A DNA stretch of 64,000 nucleotides from Nanobdellati archaeon (lineage in GTDB: Archaea; B1Sed10-29; JAGVWA01), in contig JAGVWA010000001.1 of NCBI GenBank assembly GCA_018304505.1, positions 68,363-132,362 of the forward strand, in the 5' to 3' direction. Position numbers and translations under genes: made by a program. The notes under the pieces were generated by a model. The model was not told the origin of the DNA and did no database searches. It saw nothing but the letters and a program-made list of their open reading frames with translations. Within the stretch, counting starts at the first letter, position 1; every line of letters begins with the position of its first letter. Below are positions 3,776 through 62,514 of this stretch, piece by piece.

Positions 3776-4052
3776 TGGCAGGCTAGGCTGGGAGGTTAGC
3801 GGTCTCCTGTTACTCCAGATCCGCTTTACGGGAGAGCTGAAGTTGGGAGAGCGCGATGCATGTTGCGTTAAAGCCTAGTGCTGAGCGCTGACTTCCTGTC
3901 CTGTTGGATTCGTAGTACTTGGAACCTGGTCAGGCCTTGACGGGAGCAGCCATAACATCTATTGCGGATGTCTTCAGGGTAGCAGGAACGAGCAAGGTGC
4001 TAGACCACTTTGGTGCAGTGTGCATTGTCATTTCCTAACGTGCCTGCCACCG
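3776..4052 (+). ncRNA. ffs: Signal recognition particle RNA (7S/SRP RNA)
   Basis: Domain IV motif CUGGUCAGGCCUUGACGGGAGCAGCCAUAA matches the conserved GGUCAGGxCCGGAAGGxAGCAGCC helix-8 signature. The 5' GGCAGGC pairs with 3' GCCUGCC, giving ~277 nt. Ends are approximate. Confidence 0.75.
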
Positions 4053-11947: not shown

Positions 11948-14392
11948 ATGGAATACATTGCTGACTTACATTTGCACTCTGCTTATTCTCGCGCAACAAG
12001 CCCAAAAATGAACCCAATTGACTTGTCAGAAGCAGCAAAGGTAAAAGGCGTCAACCTCATCGGCACTGGCGATTTTACACACCCAAAGCACCTCGATTTT
12101 TTGAAACAAAACCTAAAACAAGACACAGCTACCGGCTTTTACCAATATAATGGCATGGATTTTGTCTTGACTGCAGAAATAAGTTTAATGTACACCCAGG
12201 GTGGCAAAGGACGACGGGTTCATCACTTGCTCTTCGCGCCAGACTTTGAAACAGTAGACCAAGTCAACGCAGAGCTGGACAAGTGGGGCCGCAGGGACTA
12301 TGACGGCCGGCCCATTTTCGGCAAGCCCAGTATAGACCTAGTAGAAATGACACAATCAATTTCAGACAAAATCGAGATCATACCGGCGCATTGTTTGCTT
12401 CCTAAAACACCAATACATTGCAACCCCCAAACCAAAGATATTGATAAAGTCAAAAAAGGGGATATTGTCTATACCCACACCGGAAAAAAAAGAAAGGTTA
12501 AAGCAGTATATTCCAGACCATATATTGGAAAAACATATACTATAAAACCATGGTATTTCTCGCTAGGACTGACAACAACTGATGAGCACCCCTTCTTTGC
12601 TATAAACTCTTATAAGAACTGCTCTTGGATTAACGGCAAACCACAATGTTCCCAAAAGGACACCTATAAAAAAACCCCCTTCAAGAAGTATAAACCTGAA
12701 TGGATACAAGCAAAAAACCTGAAAATTGGAGACGTTATCCTCTACCCCCGATTTAGACAGATTAAAGACATTCAACAACTTGGCACTAGAAAAATAGTAA
12801 AACAAAACCTTAGAAACAAAAAGAAAGTGCCGGCTCAAATACAAATAGATGCAGATTTCTGCAGACTAATAGGGTACTATCTCGCTGAGGGCTATTCGAA
12901 TAGGAGGGATAGAATAGGGTTCACATTTAGAGAGACAGAAACAGAGTACTTAAACGACATACAACACATTATCAAAAATCAATTTGATCTTACTCCAAAA
13001 ACAGGAAAAGATAACGGCTTAAGCAAAGATCTTGTGTATTCTTCTAAAGAACTAATGCAATTGTTTGAGCACTTATGCTATTCACAAAATTCCAAAAAGA
13101 ATGCTATAACTAAAAAACTAAACCCCATCTTCATGGAATTACCAATGGCAAAACAAAAGGAGCTCTTTAGAGGTTGGTGGAGAGGCGATAAAGGATATAC
13201 CTCTTCAAGAGAATTGATGAACCAAATGAAAGTAATATGCTTAAGAATGGGCATTATCCCTTCTGTTCTTGTGGATTCAAAAGATAAACATACTCGCAGA
13301 GGAAATCATTACTACACAACAGAAAAAAGATTAATCAAATCCAATGCAGACAACTATAGTTTAAGCAACCTCGCATTCTTTGGAGAAAATCTTGACTTAT
13401 TAAAAGACCCATCCTTTAAAAAATTCAAAACAAAAATGAAAAGGCGACATGGGTGGATTGATGAAAATTATGCCTACCTTCCAATACGCGAAATAATCGA
13501 AGAAGAATATACAGGGCCTGTTTTCAACCTAGAGGTAGACATCGATAACTCGTATGTATCTGAGTTTGCCACAGTACATAATTGCTGGACCCCGTGGTTC
13601 GGAATCTTTGGCAGCAACGGCGGCTTCGACTCAATCAAGGAATGCTTCCAGGAAAAATCGAAACACATACACGCAATCGAGACCGGGCTCTCTAGCGACC
13701 CTGCAATGAACTGGCGCTTATCGAATTTAGATGACATTGCATTGATTTCCAATTCCGATTCGCATTCACCCTATCCGTGGCGCTTTGGCAGGGAAGCGAC
13801 GGCATTCGACATAACTGGATACGCAGACATGCTTACCGCAATAAGAAAACGCGATCCAAAAAAACTGCTGTACACCATCGAAGTCGACCCAGCCTACGGA
13901 AAATACCATTACGATGGCCACCGAAACTGCGGTTTTGAGTGCTCGCCAGAAGAAACCAAAAAACTCAGCGCAGTTTGCCCCAAGTGCAACAAGCCCATTA
14001 CAATTGGCGTTGAATCCAGGGTGGACGAACTCGCCGACAGGCCACACGGTTACACGCCAAAGAACGCCATACCCTACAAGACCTTGCTGCCGCTAGCAGA
14101 GCTGATAGCAAACCTTACAGGATCTGGTTTAGCAACAAAAAAGGTAATGGAGCCACACGACCTCCTAGTTAGTAGGCACGGCACTGAACTAAATGTACTG
14201 CTCAACGTGCCTGAAGAGGAATTGAAAAAAACGGTGCATGAGAAACTAGTTAAAGCAATCATGCTGAACCGCGAAGGCAAAATCAGTGTGAAGCCGGGCT
14301 ATGACGGCGTCTATGGCGTACCCCAATTCGATTTCTCGCTCGACAGCACACAAAAACAAAACATTCCTCAGAAGACCTTGAACGATTTCTAG
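11948..14392 (+). CDS. Endonuclease Q (PHP-domain, TIGR00375 family) containing an intein
   Basis: N-terminal PHP motif DLHLHSAYS...GTGDFTHP; C-terminal Zn finger CPKCNKPITIGVESRVDEL. The extein is ~417 aa once the 397-aa insertion is removed. Confidence 0.75.
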   Translation: MEYIADLHLHSAYSRATSPKMNPIDLSEAAKVKGVNLIGTGDFTHPKHLDFLKQNLKQDTATGFYQYNGMDFVLTAEISLMYTQGGKGRRVHHLLFAPDFETVDQVNAELDKWGRRDYDGRPIFGKPSIDLVEMTQSISDKIEIIPAHCLLPKTPIHCNPQTKDIDKVKKGDIVYTHTGKKRKVKAVYSRPYIGKTYTIKPWYFSLGLTTTDEHPFFAINSYKNCSWINGKPQCSQKDTYKKTPFKKYKPEWIQAKNLKIGDVILYPRFRQIKDIQQLGTRKIVKQNLRNKKKVPAQIQIDADFCRLIGYYLAEGYSNRRDRIGFTFRETETEYLNDIQHIIKNQFDLTPKTGKDNGLSKDLVYSSKELMQLFEHLCYSQNSKKNAITKKLNPIFMELPMAKQKELFRGWWRGDKGYTSSRELMNQMKVICLRMGIIPSVLVDSKDKHTRRGNHYYTTEKRLIKSNADNYSLSNLAFFGENLDLLKDPSFKKFKTKMKRRHGWIDENYAYLPIREIIEEEYTGPVFNLEVDIDNSYVSEFATVHNCWTPWFGIFGSNGGFDSIKECFQEKSKHIHAIETGLSSDPAMNWRLSNLDDIALISNSDSHSPYPWRFGREATAFDITGYADMLTAIRKRDPKKLLYTIEVDPAYGKYHYDGHRNCGFECSPEETKKLSAVCPKCNKPITIGVESRVDELADRPHGYTPKNAIPYKTLLPLAELIANLTGSGLATKKVMEPHDLLVSRHGTELNVLLNVPEEELKKTVHEKLVKAIMLNREGKISVKPGYDGVYGVPQFDFSLDSTQKQNIPQKTLNDF
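12392..13582 (+). mobile_element. Intein (Hint plus LAGLIDADG homing endonuclease) inside the EndoQ gene
   Basis: Begins CLLPKTPI and ends VHN followed by Cys. LAGLIDADG blocks LIGYYLAEGYS and KELFRGWWRGDKGYTS. The insert is AT-rich relative to the extein. Confidence 0.8.
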
Positions 14393-14421
14393 TTCGTCAA
14401 GTTTAAATATGGATCTTGTGT

Positions 14422-14583
14422 TATGAAACACATGCCGGGACGACTCAGTGTAGAACAGAGACTGCTGCTTAGCATTATTCTCGCAGCGGTTGCGGCCATT
14501 GTGCTACTGATGATTATTTTCCTCGTCCTGCCACCTGAACTGCTGCCAAGCTCTATTTCTGTAGGTAACGTGCAAGCCCCATG
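14422..14583 (+). CDS. small hydrophobic ORF (53 aa)
   Basis: MKHMPGRLSVEQRLLLSIILAAVAAIVLLMIIFLVLPPELLP, one predicted TM. Below the ORF-track length cutoff. Confidence 0.25.
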
Positions 14584-15827
14584 ATCTGGACCTTTTCTTC
14601 TGAGCCAGTCTGCATGTCCCTTACCGTCACTTGTTTTTCCACCAACTCTTGCGGCCCAACAATTACACAATATTGAATATTCTTTGAGTTGCAGTAATCA
14701 AACTGCTTCTTCAGGTTGCGTTTCATTAAGTCAATGTCAGTTGCGATGTTTTCCTTGCGGAGCATGCTAGCGATCTCTATGGCGCTGCCCCTGACTTCAT
14801 CTTTCACAGCTGCAACAAAGACCTTCGCGTATCCCGATTTGTCATAATCAGTGTCTGGAACGAGGTCCATTAGCCTGTCGAGGCCAATTCCGCAGCCAGT
14901 TGCTGCTGTGGGCTTGCCGCCGAACTGTTCCACTAGGTTGTCATAGCGCCCACCGCTAGCGATACTCCCAAGCCCCTCTTTGCCCTTGACAAAGGTTTCA
15001 AAGACAAAGCCCGTGTAGTAGCCAATGCCCCTGACTATTGATAGGTCAATCTTGATGTTCTTGACATTCATCTTTTCCGCGAACTCCACAACTTGTTTCA
15101 GCTCTTCATAATCCTTCATCGCGTCAGGGTCTTTCGAAATCTCCAGCAGCAGATCTTTTTCCTTCAGCCGGGTCATTGAAATGAACTTGCTGATGGCCTT
15201 TTCCGGTATCTTGTACCGTTCCATTTCGCCCCTGGCCTCCTTTTCACCGAGCTTGTCGAGCTTGTCTATGGCCCTGAACGCGTCTCCTGTTTTCGATTCT
15301 GGAATTCCCGCAATTTTGGCGAGGCGGTCGATGATCTTCCTGCTATTGATTCTGAAATAGTACTCTGTAATGCTTACCTGCTGGAGGACTGAATTGACAA
15401 CAGCAATGACTTCAGCGTCTGCCTCAGGTTCAGAGGAACCGAAGATTTCGTAACTCGCCTGCCAGAATTCCCTGTACCTGCCTGCTTGCGGTTTGTCGTA
15501 GCGCCACATTCTGTCGATTGTGTAGAACTTTGCCGGCTTTGCCATTGCCGGATTTGATGCAACGATCCGCGCATTCGGCACCGTGAGGTCAAAGCGCAGG
15601 CCGAGTTTTCTTTTTGACTTGTCTTCGAACGCGTAAATTTCGTTTTCAATGTCGGGGCCAGCCTTGGCAGCCAGTAACTCGAACGATTCGAAAGCGGGCG
15701 TGTTGACTTCACCATAACCGTAGCTTTCTAGGACTTGGCGCGCTGTCTCAAAAACCCTGCGACGTTTCTTCATTTCTTCAGGCAGGAAGTCCCGCGTTCC
15801 ACGGGGAACTTGGTATGTCATTGTCAT
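14553..15827 (-). CDS. hisS: Histidyl-tRNA synthetase
   Basis: Class II aaRS with HisRS N-terminus MTMTYQVPRGTRDFLPEE and motif 2/3 regions. The listed ORF extends upstream across tRNA-His, so the start was trimmed to the MTMTYQ methionine. Confidence 0.9.
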   Translation of the reverse strand: MTMTYQVPRGTRDFLPEEMKKRRRVFETARQVLESYGYGEVNTPAFESFELLAAKAGPDIENEIYAFEDKSKRKLGLRFDLTVPNARIVASNPAMAKPAKFYTIDRMWRYDKPQAGRYREFWQASYEIFGSSEPEADAEVIAVVNSVLQQVSITEYYFRINSRKIIDRLAKIAGIPESKTGDAFRAIDKLDKLGEKEARGEMERYKIPEKAISKFISMTRLKEKDLLLEISKDPDAMKDYEELKQVVEFAEKMNVKNIKIDLSIVRGIGYYTGFVFETFVKGKEGLGSIASGGRYDNLVEQFGGKPTAATGCGIGLDRLMDLVPDTDYDKSGYAKVFVAAVKDEVRGSAIEIASMLRKENIATDIDLMKRNLKKQFDYCNSKNIQYCVIVGPQELVEKQVTVRDMQTGSEEKVQIMGLARYLQK

Positions 15828-16156
15828 TGCTTGATCAACTCCTCTATTGTTTTTAAGGATTCGTTTCTCGAAAACGCGATGGGGCCGATGCCGAGAATCG
15901 AACTCGGGCTGCCAGAGCCACAATCTGACGTGCTAACCGCTACACTACATCGGCCGTTAGTTGGACCTTCTGCTTCAGAAATGTTTTTCGATGACTTCAA
16001 AAATGAGCCCCCAATGCACGGCTGCTTTAGAATTGCGTTGCTGCCCTTGATTTCGAGTTGCACAGAATCCAGTATGCCAAGGCTTTGGCGGAGTTTTTGC
16101 GGTATCACTATCCTATTCTTATCGTCTAGTTTACATAGGTAGGTGAAGTGAACCAC
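15824..16156 (-). CDS. SpoVT/AbrB-like swapped-hairpin domain ORF; C-terminal part overlaps tRNA-His (questionable)
   Basis: The N-terminus KLDDKNRIVIPQKLRQSLGI...VQLEIKGSNAILK resembles AbrB/MazE. GTG start. Residues ~68-93 are encoded by the tRNA-His sequence. A ctttataaag TATA sits ~30 nt upstream. Confidence 0.3.
   Translation of the reverse strand: MVHFTYLCKLDDKNRIVIPQKLRQSLGILDSVQLEIKGSNAILKQPCIGGSFLKSSKNISEAEGPTNGRCSVAVSTSDCGSGSPSSILGIGPIAFSRNESLKTIEELIKQ
15880..15955 (-). tRNA. tRNA-His(GUG) with genomically encoded G-1 and 3' CCA
   Basis: Reverse complement gives G-1 plus GCCGAUG acceptor, D arm, anticodon arm UCAGA-UUGUGGC-UCUGG (anticodon GUG), T arm CCGAG-UUCGAUU-CUCGG and 3' CAUCGGC-C-CCA. 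Confidence 0.8.
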
Positions 16157-16242
16157 TCATTTTTACTCACTTACATCATTGTGGCGTTCCCACTTTATAA
16201 AGCTTTTCTTTATTCGAAAATTAATGCATTTTTTATGACGTG

Positions 16243-16641
16243 CTACCCTGCCCCAGTAGCATGTTTTTTCGTTGTCGCTGTCGCGTCGAGCGTTTCTGAC
16301 ACCATCAGGGCGTAGGGCGTTGGCCCAATCATGGCCATTTTGGCGGCGAAGGTTTCTGCGAGGATCCCGCCGTTTTTCTTGCGCACGTTGATTTTTAGCC
16401 TGGCCTGACCCCTCATTACGATTTCTTTTATTGCGCCACCTATTAACTCATTTGACTCACGGTCTACAAAATTCCTTGAATGCTCGCCGATGACCTCGCT
16501 GCGCGTTCTGCCGGTTTCCTTTAGGTGCCTCGCAGAATCGTGTTCTATCGTGAGGTCGTACAGATTAACAATTAGGTCTGGTTCTCTCCCAAGCTTCTTG
16601 GTTGCTGCTTTTAATAACGTATCCTGAGCCATGCAAACCAC
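16243..16641 (-). CDS. hypothetical protein
   Basis: 132-aa ORF co-directional with the following gene; no motif recognised. Confidence 0.4.
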   Translation of the reverse strand: MVCMAQDTLLKAATKKLGREPDLIVNLYDLTIEHDSARHLKETGRTRSEVIGEHSRNFVDRESNELIGGAIKEIVMRGQARLKINVRKKNGGILAETFAAKMAMIGPTPYALMVSETLDATATTKKHATGAG

Positions 16642-16675
16642 ATGTAGACTTCACGCGCCTCAATTCAGGCACTGC

Positions 16676-17200
16676 TTAACCGATGTACCGCTCAATTTCC
16701 TTTTCCATTTGCTGCCTGTACCTTTTGGAAACGTCTTTTGAAACGATTATAGAGATCAGCATGCCGATGGTGTGCGCCTTCTCCCCAAGCTCGAATGACG
16801 CCAACACATACTCTGACATCTGCCTCTTTTTGCCTGCAGGGATCTTCTGAGTATATCGTTTATAATTTATCCGCTCGCGCTTCAGCAGCTTTGCCAGGTA
16901 ATCAGGCTGATGCTCAAAGGCCTTCCCCAGCTCCATGCCCTCCTCGAGCTGGATACCAATGAACTTCCTGATCGCATCCTCAAGAGCCTTCGTGTAAACC
17001 TTGTCGGTCTGCAAATGTGCAAGCATGATTTCGATGCTCTGGAGCACCTCCTCAAACAGCTGCGTTGTCCTCCTGGCCCCGTCAGTGTCAAGGCACTGCT
17101 TTATCGTAGATATGACGAGCTTCTGGATCGCCGGGCTTACGCGCTCTGGAATATCGACATCTACAACGCAGGTCCTTCCCCTGATTTTGTGGTGCGTCAT
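16676..17200 (-). CDS. hypothetical protein
   Basis: 174-aa ORF, helical and charged. Preceded by copy 2 of the 95-nt repeat module. Confidence 0.4.
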   Translation of the reverse strand: MTHHKIRGRTCVVDVDIPERVSPAIQKLVISTIKQCLDTDGARRTTQLFEEVLQSIEIMLAHLQTDKVYTKALEDAIRKFIGIQLEEGMELGKAFEHQPDYLAKLLKRERINYKRYTQKIPAGKKRQMSEYVLASFELGEKAHTIGMLISIIVSKDVSKRYRQQMEKEIERYIG

Positions 17201-17261
17201 GGTTTCAGAATGCCATTTGAGTTTATAAACATTTGTAACCCCGCAACAGCGGACGAAATAA

Positions 17262-17353
17262 ACCCAAATTCACCAAACCGAGTTAAGGAAGACTTATATT
17301 TGTTGAGAAACAGAAAAGAGGACATAAAACGCGGGAGTCCCATAGTTTGGTAA
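17262..17353. repeat. ~95-nt repeat, copy 2, interrupted/extended by a 115-nt structured insert
   Basis: cccaaattcaccaaaccgagttaaggaagacttatatt...aaaacgcgggagtccca is ~90% identical to 3569-3666. The terminal ttccgggcgcc segment resumes at 17451-17461. Confidence 0.7.
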
Positions 17354-17468
17354 TTGGGATGGTTTTAGGAACAACCATATCTCCCCCGAGATCCGTGGGT
17401 TCAAATCTGCAACGAACGCAGTTCGTTGAGCTTTCCGCATAGCGGAAATCCCCTTCCGGGCGCCATGT
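17354..17468. ncRNA. 115-nt highly structured element inserted within repeat copy 2 (function unknown)
   Basis: Several perfect hairpins (CAACGAA-CGCAG-UUCGUUG; UUUCCGC-AUA-GCGGAAA; AUGGUU...AACCAU) and a GUGGGUUCAAAUC T-loop-like segment. It is flanked by the imperfect direct repeat CGGGAGTCCCA / CGGAAATCCCC. Confidence 0.3.
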
Positions 17469-17567
17469 ACACCCCCCTTAATTATGCACCAACAGCTATT
17501 TAAACTTAATCAAAACCCGCCGCGGTTAATACAGTTATTACGGTTATCGATATATTTGTCGAGCGCA

Positions 17568-18890
17568 TTATCCAAGCTCTGCCCTGATCTTGATCCATGG
17601 CAACAGTGCCGTGCCAAGGTTTTTTCGTTCCCTGCTGACCTCGATTATTTGCTTCATGAAGTCAATGCCATTGGTTTTGAACACCCAGCTTCCTGGGCTC
17701 GGCTGTGCAGTGTACTTGCCGTTCTCGATTACGAGACCCTCATTAACGTTGAAGTTGAAATTCCCGGTTACGTCATCGGCGCTGTGGGTACCCATAGACC
17801 GAATTGCGAGAATGCCCTTATCGACTGAAGACAGCATTTCTTCTAACGGGGTTTGGCCAGGCTCCATTATGAGGTTCGATGGAACGGGCCTTATTGAATT
17901 GCCTGTGCGTGCAGCGTTTCCTGTCGGCTCCTGATTTGCCTTTTGCGCAGTATCGAGGTCATTAACAAACATCTTGAAGACGCCGTTCTCGATCAGTGTT
18001 TTTTTCCTTCCCGGAATGCCTTCATCATCGCAGCGATACGATCCTGTCATGTAGTCCTCCAGCGGGTTGTCATGGAGTGTTATTGGTAATTCTGACAGCG
18101 TCATTCCACGTTCTAGTTTTGACAAGCCCTGTTGTTTCGTTAATAATGAGAAATGATTGCTGGCGATGCCTTCTAAGAGCTCTGCAACCGCGTCTGGCGC
18201 CAGAATAATGACGGCGTTTTTCCTGTCAATGCCGATGTCCTCCGGGGACTTTTTGTCCTTCAGCACCCGTGCCAGGCATTCAGTTGGAACCCTCGAAAAA
18301 GCATCGGGGGAGAGCATTTTCCCGGATTCCTCATATTCTAATTGCTCGTCGTTTATCCCGACCGCAAGCGAAACGCTAGTTCTAGCACCAGGCAGCGGCT
18401 CTGCGTTTTTTGATGACTGAAAAATGGATTCTGAGTACTTAAGGGTCAGGTAAGCCTCAGCGGTTTCAAGTTCAACACCCTTGTATTTTGCCTCAGTTTC
18501 TATTGTGTCAACCGCTGTTTGTATGAGCTGCTTGGCCCTGGCAGGGTCTTCAATTAGGGCCTTGATTTCGCTGTCCCAAAGCTCAACTTTCGCGGGCACT
18601 ACTTGGGGAAACTCCCTGACGCTTGCTTCTGAGTCTGACTCGAGGGCCTTCTTGACAGCGCTTTTCATTACCTGGGCATCAAAGCTGCTCACTGCCGCTG
18701 ATGCTTTTTTGCCGCCCTTCACCATGTCAATCACCAGGGACTCGGCCTTGTCGCTCAACAGCGGCGTTATCTCCCGGTTTTTTGCCTTGAACTTAAGCGT
18801 CGTGTGTTCTGCGGCCTTGTACCGCCACTCGGTGACGCCGTTGCTACTAAGGGCGCTTATGACGTTCTTCGCTAGTTCTTCAGTATTCAT
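17568..18890 (-). CDS. pmbA: PmbA/TldE (peptidase U62 family)
   Basis: 440 aa with CDDEG and GNAAR-type motifs; adjacent to tldD. Confidence 0.8.
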   Translation of the reverse strand: MNTEELAKNVISALSSNGVTEWRYKAAEHTTLKFKAKNREITPLLSDKAESLVIDMVKGGKKASAAVSSFDAQVMKSAVKKALESDSEASVREFPQVVPAKVELWDSEIKALIEDPARAKQLIQTAVDTIETEAKYKGVELETAEAYLTLKYSESIFQSSKNAEPLPGARTSVSLAVGINDEQLEYEESGKMLSPDAFSRVPTECLARVLKDKKSPEDIGIDRKNAVIILAPDAVAELLEGIASNHFSLLTKQQGLSKLERGMTLSELPITLHDNPLEDYMTGSYRCDDEGIPGRKKTLIENGVFKMFVNDLDTAQKANQEPTGNAARTGNSIRPVPSNLIMEPGQTPLEEMLSSVDKGILAIRSMGTHSADDVTGNFNFNVNEGLVIENGKYTAQPSPGSWVFKTNGIDFMKQIIEVSRERKNLGTALLPWIKIRAELG

Positions 18891-62367: not shown

Positions 62368-62514
62368 GCACCAGTAGTCTAGTGGTATGACTCGGCCTTG
62401 CCAACGAAGGGTTTCACCCTCTCGACACCTGAAGCGCACCTTCAGTAGCGCGGTGTTCATGATGAAATCTCAGGTAAACAGGCCGTGGCCCGGGTTCAAT
62501 TCCCGGCTGGTGCA
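62368..62514 (+). tRNA. tRNA-Gly(GCC) with 76-nt intron carrying box C/D-like motifs
   Basis: GCACCAG UA GUCUAGUGGUAUGAC U CGGCC-UUGCCAA-[76 nt]-GGCCG UGGC CCGGG-UUCAAUU-CCCGG CUGGUGC A. The intron contains CUGA and AUGAUGA. Confidence 0.7.

Follow-up and report, generated by a model that had tools for sequence, protein, structure and literature searches.

A histidine-codon leader ahead of tRNA-His and hisS in DPANN archaea: a candidate +1 frameshifting sensor of His-tRNA supply

Why would a tRNA gene lie within an open reading frame (ORF) immediately upstream of the gene for its cognate synthetase? This question is raised by a 64,000-nucleotide stretch of the genome of a Nanobdellati archaeon (positions 68,363 to 132,362 of contig JAGVWA010000001.1; hereafter, the window), where the order on the minus strand is a TATA box, an ORF with an AbrB-like domain, the tRNA-His gene and hisS, which encodes histidyl-tRNA synthetase (HisRS). 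The key element of this locus, overlooked by the first-pass annotation within the very region that it described, is a 9-codon upstream ORF (uORF) with a conserved slippery histidine site, NTT-CAY. Here we describe the locus as the probable head of a histidine-specific operon of a DPANN archaeon, consisting of a promoter, a Shine-Dalgarno (SD) sequence, the uORF, the AbrB-like gene, the embedded tRNA-His and hisS. The tRNA-His, the AbrB-like frame and hisS are a real unit that is conserved in many DPANN archaea. As far as can be judged from sequence comparison, the best explanation, and one that we consider rather probable, is a programmed +1 frameshift, resembling that of bacterial prfB, which would occur at a hungry His codon and feed back on the supply of His-tRNA.

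The operon head and its leader

The main features of the window locus, in the order of transcription, are the following.

16194..16201, minus strand: TATA box TTTATAAA, read from the sequence and directly followed by GTGGGAA (16193-16187)
16166..16171, minus strand: SD-like AGTGAG, 5 nt 5' of the uORF ATG, conserved in most leader loci
16131..16160, minus strand: uORF (0 frame), ATG AGT GGT TCA CTT CAC CTA CCT ATG TAA, encoding MSGSLHLPM, recognized through homologous uORFs in relatives
16143..16148, minus strand: proposed +1 slip site, CTT (P site) and CAC (His, A site), with TTC (16147-16145) as the post-slip P-site codon
15824..16156, minus strand: +1-frame ORF of 110 aa, an AbrB-like domain plus a tail running through tRNA-His (ORF list, Pfam)
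16019..16138, minus strand: SpoVT/AbrB swapped-hairpin domain, about residues 7-46, LCKLDDKNRIVIPQKLRQSLGI...ILKQP (Pfam, jackhmmer, PDB profile)
15880..15955, minus strand: tRNA-His(GUG) with encoded G-1 and CCA (ARAGORN, Rfam, sequence)
15839..15844, minus strand: SD of hisS, GAGGAG (sequence)
14553..15827, minus strand: hisS, class II HisRS, 424 aa (Pfam PF13393, PF03129)

The tRNA and synthetase genes are as first described. ARAGORN calls tRNA-His(GTG) at 15880-15954 on the minus strand, and the Rfam tRNA model RF00005 matches with 63 bits (E=1.6e-12). The cloverleaf has a GUG anticodon, the acceptor stem GCCGATG/CATCGGC, an extra 5' G (G-1, 15955) that faces the discriminator C73 (15883), and an encoded CCA (15882-15880). 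The hisS start codon, ATG at 15827-15825, follows the CCA after 52 nt, and the product is a complete HisRS with a catalytic core (tRNA-synt_His, PF13393, 204 bits) and an anticodon-binding domain (HGTP_anticodon, PF03129, 64.6 bits), the N-terminus of which aligns with those of its homologs. The nearest of these are 57-59% identical and come from DPANN metagenome-assembled genomes labelled Aenigmarchaeota, Micrarchaeota or just 'archaeon'; identical copies of the window locus are found on 8 groundwater-metagenome contigs representing one population. The TATA box had also been noted, but at 16187-16196, about 5 nt from its actual position.

The uORF overlaps the start of the AbrB-like ORF and is read in the -1 frame with respect to that ORF. 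For comparison, we collected 58 hisS loci from GTDB representatives, 80 from JGI metagenomes and 12 through exact-protein look-up (designated below by L numbers). The GTDB representatives, retrieved with a HisRS query, were at best 40% identical and served only as negative background; the best match among them has neither leader nor tRNA-His. Homologous uORFs of 7-26 codons with the core G/S-x-[LVIF]-H were identified at about 28 related archaeal loci, in at least 16 lineages. In the leader consensus, a TATA box is followed after about 22 nt by an SD-like AGTGAG or GGTGA and, 4-6 nt further on, by the ATG of a short ORF with NTT-CAY. The TATA-to-SD spacing is constant and the same in the window as in its relatives, the SD sequence, (A)GTGA(G) or GGTGA, keeps its distance from the start in most leader loci, and the start is ATG in nearly all of them. 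The NTT-CA(C/T) site, in which a codon for Leu, Val, Ile or Phe with TT in its last two positions precedes a His codon, is invariant, and in most loci the stop codon comes 1-8 codons (up to 10) past the His codon. A purine-rich hexamer (GGTGAA, GGTGGA, GGCGAA, AGTGGT) is located exactly 3 nt 5' of the NTT codon. Examples of the encoded peptides, each ending directly at the stop codon, are:

L144: MSGYFHNKQMDN
L145: MGECLHVRNQARQ
L064: MKGESSIRSGLLHFG
L086: MGGLVHL
L075: MAGFIHPGL
L097: MIRSECLHS
L069: MVDSLHLQY
L114: MKRDLLHR

A leader profile searched with nhmmer matched 13 loci (E 1e-9 to 1e-26), always upstream of hisS and on the same strand, and later scans brought the count to the present one. 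With the SD sequence required, the leader pattern occurs 32 times on the hisS strand vs 7 times on the other. Clustering of the tabulated leader loci at 70% HisRS identity gives 16 clusters, the lowest pairwise identities being about 35-45%, and more lineages were added subsequently; the combination of the uORF with an open +1 frame recurs in independent assemblies. Folding of ten leaders yielded no significant or shared structure (z-scores -2.0 to +0.9), and the palindrome GTGAA..TTCAC seen in some leaders is not kept as a pair. No analogous cassette precedes the IleRS gene of L150, which has an ordinary SD and ATG and no uORF.

Several observations on the leader stand apart. The TATA box with the adjacent GTGGGAA recurs in the syntenic loci L144, L145 and L097; the motif (window 16187-16201 together with the TATA box) is the reverse complement of TTCCCAC, which, in the L064 clade (leaders of L066, L068, L076, L084, L110 and L150), is located on the coding strand 5' of the TATA box. 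This element may be a binding site for a regulator. Second, internal cassettes (ATG..NTT-CAY) were found in L066 (1692-1721), L147 (728-766), L155 (1225-1257) and L107 (1284-1319), where the genes behind them encode HisG-HisI, a 292-aa unknown protein followed by DUF6282, and a racemase; the position of such cassettes ahead of individual downstream genes suggests that the device is modular within operons. In L147, positions 318-375, 5' of the present promoter, hold the remnant of an L064-type leader joined to the first hisS codons (AGTGGTTTACTTCAC...ATGAAATTCC), which is evidence of cassette duplication and reshuffling.

The +1 reading frame: AbrB-like genes, tRNA-His and hisS

Reading from TTC-AC in the +1 frame reveals a long ORF at every leader locus, so that the combination typical of prfB, a short 0-frame ORF and a long functional ORF in the +1 frame, is present at about 28 loci. 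Depending on the locus, the +1 product is an AbrB-like protein, HisRS itself or an unknown protein, among others; these include HisG-HisI behind the second cassette of L066, histidinol dehydrogenase HisD in L114, a racemase in L107 and an ArgE/DapE-type deacylase in L087. Most of the 19 tabulated loci have no canonical +1-frame start 5' of the slip site. In L066, L084, L076/78 and L145, the first ATG, GTG or TTG lies inside the AbrB domain, and in the L107 racemase, the first start comes only after the N-terminal GILGGMGP motif; the window has GTG 16156.

The arrangement is most compact in eight loci without AbrB (L064, L072, L075, L085, L086, L093, L108 and L150), where the +1 frame is open into hisS: 16-21 stop-free codons lead, in frame, up to the hisS ATG, with a chance probability of about 0.07-0.09 per locus. 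Wherever the locus contains a tRNA, hisS is preceded by an SD of its own, and wherever the +1 frame is fused to hisS, such an SD is absent. A natural control is provided by L067, which has lost the His codon and in which the uORF is fused to hisS in the 0 frame, as one continuous frame colinear with the product predicted to result from the shift in its relative L064. The loci fetched after the hypothesis had been formed (L148, L149, L150, L152, L155, L069/154 and L114) fit it.

The AbrB-like ORF of the window begins with GTG 16156, and its TGA stop overlaps the hisS start (ATGA). Shuffling gives P=0.003 for this ORF to remain open. Its N-terminal part matches the Pfam family MraZ (PF02381, AbrB clan) with 25.5 bits against a cutoff of 23, and the ORFs of relatives match PF04014 with 26-41 bits against 24.7. 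Including the relatives, jackhmmer scored the domain at 83 bits, and a profile of the window ORF and its relatives matched the N-terminal domains of AbrB, SpoVT and Abh in PDB (E 5e-10 to 1e-7); the TIGR01439 score remained under the cutoff of that model. A word-indexed protein search with the ORF returned only the identical protein from the 8 contigs of the same population, whereas homologs were identified in L066, L068, L076-78, L084, L110, L144, L145, L147, L148, L149, L152 and L155. Across the approximately 150 loci scanned, the AbrB-like genes are on the hisS strand and, with the sole exception of L100, upstream of hisS. The ORF, which the first-pass annotation had suspected of being a leader peptide or spurious, is neither a mere leader peptide nor an artefact. 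By domain match, its product is likely a transcription regulator, which may bind DNA as a dimer. Identification as a type II antitoxin (MazE/VapB) was rejected, as no cognate toxin gene is adjacent; the neighbors are the tRNA, hisS and a PAS-like ORF, with neither a toxin gene nor an integrase among them.

The frame does not end where the tRNA begins. In the window, there is no stop ahead of tRNA-His, the codon GGC begins at G-1, and just 5' of the tRNA, the tail motif ISKN is kept in the window, L144, L145 and L148. The +1 ORF spans the whole tRNA-His in seven lineages (the window, L065, L068, L097, L145, L146/147 and L149), in all of which a codon begins at G-1, and it is open even through the introns, two in L065 and one in L145. 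These ORFs stop at or near the next start codon, with the ATGA overlap in the window, L065 and L147. In L065 and L097, which lack the AbrB domain, +1 ORFs of 104 and 82 codons are nevertheless open, and the shuffling probability of the tRNA-spanning ORFs is 0.0007-0.009 per locus. At no locus is there a stop ahead of the tRNA. The conserved ISKN tail and the frame open into the tRNA indicate that tRNA-His is embedded in what is, by its sequence, a translated region of mRNA, which was the remaining option of the first-pass annotation.

The adjacency itself is widespread, and the expectation of finding it in relatives was borne out. In at least 10 other lineages, tRNA-His is in a same-strand unit 5' of hisS, among them L068, L097, L144, L146/147, L148 and L149 and, with intron-containing tRNAs, L065 (two introns), L145 and L069/L154 (one each). 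It is also near hisS in L132, L122 and L153. Immediate adjacency would be expected about 0.01 times in 150 loci, for genomes of about 1 Mb, so that its presence in so many lineages is more than chance. Intron-containing tRNA-His genes were missed by ARAGORN; those of L065 and L145 were spliced by hand, resulting in good cloverleaves, and those of L069/L154 were read from the sequence.

Some of these tRNA genes have unusual structures. The L065 gene (2158-2338) contains introns at about 2197-2259, in the anticodon loop, and at 2281-2325, after the T-loop. The first intron holds GGTGAAGTTGACTCAAAAG, close to the 5' coding sequence of the L068 AbrB gene, GTTGACTCCAAAG, which suggests that an AbrB gene was lost or rearranged around the tRNA. 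In L069 (1465-2745, and likewise in L154), the +1 ORF behind the His cassette encodes a 390-aa LAGLIDADG protein and is flanked by a direct repeat of the tRNA-His 5' end (CGCCCGTGTG); the tRNA-His of L069/L154 has C at -1, A73, CCA and an intron, and G-1 is not encoded. In L153, where there is no leader, positions 2340-2890, 5' of hisS, contain two copies of the 5' part of tRNA-His (ATGGCTGTGGTAG...) and three of the 3' part (GGTGAAACTCCCGGCCACGGCC), with 90-120 nt between the copies; these may represent a multi-intron, split or duplicated tRNA-His.

The genes downstream of the leaders share a histidine theme: HisRS, tRNA-His, HisG-HisI (L066, L152), HisD (L114) and an aromatic amino acid (histidine-type) ammonia-lyase (L076). 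Histidine-related genes are often located between the AbrB-like genes and hisS, namely, the HisG-HisI fusion (L066, L152), the ammonia-lyase (L076) and Asp/Glu-type racemases (L084, L110). A gene of the Asp/Glu/hydantoin-racemase family recurs beside hisS (L084, 161-1054; L110, 2117-2815; L107, 1303-2028; L137, 5' of hisS), fused to the AbrB domain in L084 and behind the His cassette in L107; this gene context hints that the racemase acts on histidine.

A frameshift at the histidine codon and its alternatives

The most coherent reading of these observations is autoregulation of the His-tRNA supply. The first-pass annotation had likewise proposed autoregulation, in a T-box-like or processing-coupled form; nothing T-box-like is supported. 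When His-tRNA(His) is plentiful, ribosomes would decode CAC and terminate a few codons later, at the end of the uORF. The ribosome-free RNA downstream would be able to fold, so that RNase P and RNase Z could excise tRNA-His, while basal expression of hisS would rely on the SD of that gene and perhaps on a promoter of its own. When His-tRNA is scarce, the A-site CAC would be left empty, and the P-site tRNA would slip from NUU onto UUC, after which the ribosome would go on in the +1 frame. In the window, the shifted ribosome would make the AbrB-like protein, cross tRNA-His and terminate on the hisS start, favoring HisRS synthesis; ending on this ATG would couple the synthesis of HisRS to the shortage of charging. 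In relatives without AbrB, the shift would directly give an N-terminally extended HisRS. The spacer between tRNA-His and hisS contains two further elements:

15871..15874, minus strand: T4 run, 6 nt past the CCA, a weak archaeal terminator at best (sequence only)
15850..15856, minus strand: TATA-like TTAAAAA, a possible internal promoter, 23-29 nt 5' of the hisS ATG (sequence)

The T4 run is missing from L068 and L097. At the position of TTAAAAA, L068 has CCTTAAAAA, and L144 and L148 have TTATAAAT.

The slip itself is consistent with decoding rules. NUU codons are decoded by tRNAs with G34 through G-U wobble; on UUC, the same tRNA pairs G34 with C and retains the A-U pair in the middle. The invariance of TT-C fits a +1 slip because the G34 tRNA can re-pair on UUC. 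A slippery P-site codon thus stands next to the His A-site codon, and the change from NUU to UUC keeps 2-3 pairs; slow decoding of CAY under histidine limitation is what we infer. Taken more broadly, the leader would represent a sensor conserved in archaea: with the A site left empty at just one His codon, the ribosome would slip from NUU-CAY to N-UUC-AYN, switching on HisRS, histidine-pathway enzymes and the AbrB-like regulator. In several lineages, the shifted ribosome would read through the embedded tRNA-His, so that the transcript would serve as either mRNA or tRNA. For this broader proposal, the case for and the case against appear to us evenly balanced.

Several observations weigh against a frameshift. 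All the support is comparative, and the shift itself is something that we infer from aligned sequences; the related lineages are not fully independent samples, and some relatives (L151, L153) lack the leader. Re-pairing is perfect only for UUU (Phe), whereas GUU and AUU re-pair at two of the three positions. Only some of the loci have an SD-like hexamer before the slip codon, the folded leaders share no RNA structure that could assist or tune the site, and each uORF has just one or two His codons. Reading through the tRNA is not universal: in L144, L148 and L069, the +1 ORF ends inside the 5' part of the tRNA, at TAG or TAA within the first 10-20 nt. Finally, the window, L144, L148 and L093 carry a +1-frame GTG 4 nt after the uORF ATG, so that the AbrB-like ORF of the window could start conventionally, and the window hisS, equipped with an SD and a TATA-like box, may be independent of the upstream frame.

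These last points lead to the alternative of a conventional operon with a regulatory leader peptide, in which the His-containing uORF stalls, occludes, reinitiates or acts as a decoy with respect to the overlapping GTG. The AbrB-like protein would then be translated from GTG 16156, and from near-cognate starts in relatives, the tRNA would be co-transcribed and excised, and the open frame through it would be a by-product. The GTG beside the uORF ATG, found also in L064, L110 and L147, the ATT, ATA or ATC codons in the +1 frame of L084, L145 and L076, and the SD and possible promoter of hisS itself all accord with this scheme. However, it has to contend with the scarcity of canonical +1 starts among the 19 tabulated loci and with L066, where no start of any kind precedes the AbrB domain, and it leaves unexplained the in-frame run into hisS at eight loci, the invariance of TT-C before A(C/T), and the colinear 0-frame fusion in L067; moreover, no conserved attenuation hairpins were found in the ten folded leaders. 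On balance, we regard a conventional operon as unlikely, if far from negligible. Sensing of uncharged tRNA-His by a T-box-like or otherwise structured RNA in the hisS leader, suggested solely by the pairing of a synthetase with its cognate tRNA, can be considered effectively refuted. T-boxes are a bacterial family; at E ≤ 1, Rfam detects no family other than tRNA in 14000-18000, and the whole window at gathering scores yields only tRNAs and the signal recognition particle (SRP) RNA. The spacer between the tRNA and hisS is 20-52 nt across loci, and the 52 nt of the window are too short, and the leader folds have no structure in common.

Chance or decay would make the AbrB-like ORF a remnant that lost its stop, either of an orphan MazE/VapB-type antitoxin or of the edge of a tRNA-integrated element, with an adjacency devoid of function. 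AbrB/MazE domains are indeed common antitoxins and tRNA genes are integration hot spots, and rearrangements are seen in relatives, namely, the duplicated leader-hisS fragment of L147, the LAGLIDADG gene of L069 and the repeated tRNA pieces of L153. Such an origin is nonetheless highly improbable: we reject it because no toxin or integrase accompanies the ORF and because the synteny is conserved, with the strand and position of the AbrB-like genes as described above, an intact domain, a tail kept up to the tRNA, and an arrangement that persists across lineages with 40-60% HisRS identity.

More specific mechanisms were rejected as well. Recoding or read-through of TAG had to be considered for AbrB frames of the form GTG-NNN-TAG-TTC. 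This TAG arises simply when the uORF codons TTA-G are read in the +1 frame; in leader loci, TAG often serves as an ordinary stop, and its normal use means that recoding does not explain the frames. Transcriptional slippage would require homopolymer runs, and the leader loci have none that would allow it. A transcription attenuator of the his type does not agree with one or two His codons and the insignificant leader folds, and the T-box riboswitch already discussed, with its specifier-containing stem I, T-box sequence and terminator/antiterminator, has neither an Rfam match nor a significant leader structure to its credit.

Surrounding features and comparison with known systems

Directly 5' of the operon promoter, a 132-aa ORF (window 16243-16641, minus strand) has a weak match to PAS_9 (E=0.022, under the cutoff). 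Convergent with hisS is an 814-aa ORF (window 11948-14392, plus strand) that includes an intein with a LAGLIDADG domain (Pfam Intein_splicing and LAGLIDADG_3) and is labelled MJ0043_C in precomputed annotation; in L144, L145, L148, L153 and L154, the corresponding place is taken by intein-free homologs of about 410 aa. Elsewhere in the window, Rfam detects an archaeal SRP RNA at 3776-4049, which marks the DNA as archaeal, and a tRNA match of 51.5 bits at 62368-62514 (plus strand), which has no ARAGORN call and the 147-nt span of which implies an intron-containing tRNA. Among the other loci, those of Methanosuratincola have an odd 90-nt tRNA call on the minus strand with no anticodon assigned (L001, 95-186; L002, 2779-2868; L003, 2794-2883), probably an intron-containing tRNA divergent from hisS. 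A scan for sigma-70 promoters and hairpin terminators was uninformative for an archaeon.

To our knowledge, the regulation of archaeal aminoacyl-tRNA synthetases is essentially unknown, with no T-boxes and no demonstrated attenuators, and the leader described here is a simple, widely conserved candidate for it. It follows a clear sequence rule (SD, ATG, x(n), purine hexamer, NNN, NTT, CAY) and makes a sharp prediction, namely, that the trans-frame product goes up as the charging of His-tRNA drops. Gene callers mis-start or miss these +1-frame genes, and a tRNA gene kept translatable within an ORF poses the question of how translation and tRNA processing compete on one RNA. If correct, the proposed mechanism would add a new mode of amino acid sensing. 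It would be the first natural use of hungry-codon frameshifting in regulation and the first case of an aminoacyl-tRNA synthetase autoregulated through a frameshift, as well as the first programmed +1 shift in a cellular gene of Archaea. The only cellular programmed frameshift listed for Archaea by De Lise et al. (2021; PMC8211752, section 7), that of fucA1, is a -1 shift. Our full-text literature searches found no description of HisRS or hisS frameshifting, of such a leader, or of frameshifting in DPANN archaea or upon histidine starvation.

Among known systems, the proposed frameshift would resemble above all that of prfB, the gene for bacterial release factor 2, which is autoregulated by a +1 shift at CUU-UGA-C with an SD-like stimulator 3 nt upstream. 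Both have a short 0-frame ORF that ends just past the site, a main ORF in the +1 frame and a P-site NUU (CUU in the window). The purine-rich hexamer, SD-like in part of the loci, has the spacing of the prfB stimulator. As in prfB, the A-site codon would be decoded slowly upon shortage of the product or pathway of the gene itself, and the proposed feedback follows the same logic. The slow codon, however, is a stop in prfB and would be a sense (His) codon here, the site is only 5-15 codons from the start, several genes of an operon can each carry a cassette, and the unit that would be controlled is an archaeal operon of a synthetase, a tRNA and a regulator. Slippage in the P site while the A site awaits a scarce aminoacyl-tRNA or a sensed metabolite is shared with the hungry-codon +1 frameshifting studied by Gallant, with Ty1 (CUU-AGG-C) and with the antizyme sensors. 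Hungry-codon frameshifting has been known from starved Escherichia coli since the 1980s; here, the starvation-induced shift would make a functional trans-frame protein. According to Atkins et al. (2016; PMC5009743, section 31), no natural hungry-codon frameshifting that yields functional trans-frame proteins is known.

As in bacterial his attenuation, histidine-related genes would be controlled by a short leader ORF, the translation of which depends on His-tRNA(His); however, the bacterial leader has seven His codons as opposed to one or two here, where there are no terminator/antiterminator hairpins and the read-out would be a change of the reading frame rather than termination of transcription. 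Like the hisS T-box of Firmicutes, the leader would make hisS respond to the charging of tRNA-His, but it has no T-box structure or sequence, and sensing would occur in the ribosomal A site. The AbrB-like proteins belong by Pfam and PDB-profile matches with the swapped-hairpin proteins AbrB, SpoVT and MazE, from which they differ by the lack of a conventional start in several lineages and of a conventional stop in most, by fusion to a racemase in L084, and by having no toxin partner. A tRNA in one unit with a translation gene is also found in the tufB operon of E. coli and in pylT-pylS of Methanosarcina, where pylT lies directly 5' of its cognate synthetase gene; what distinguishes the archaeal operon described here from both is that the tRNA is inside an open reading frame and that the unit is headed by a leader with the cognate codon.

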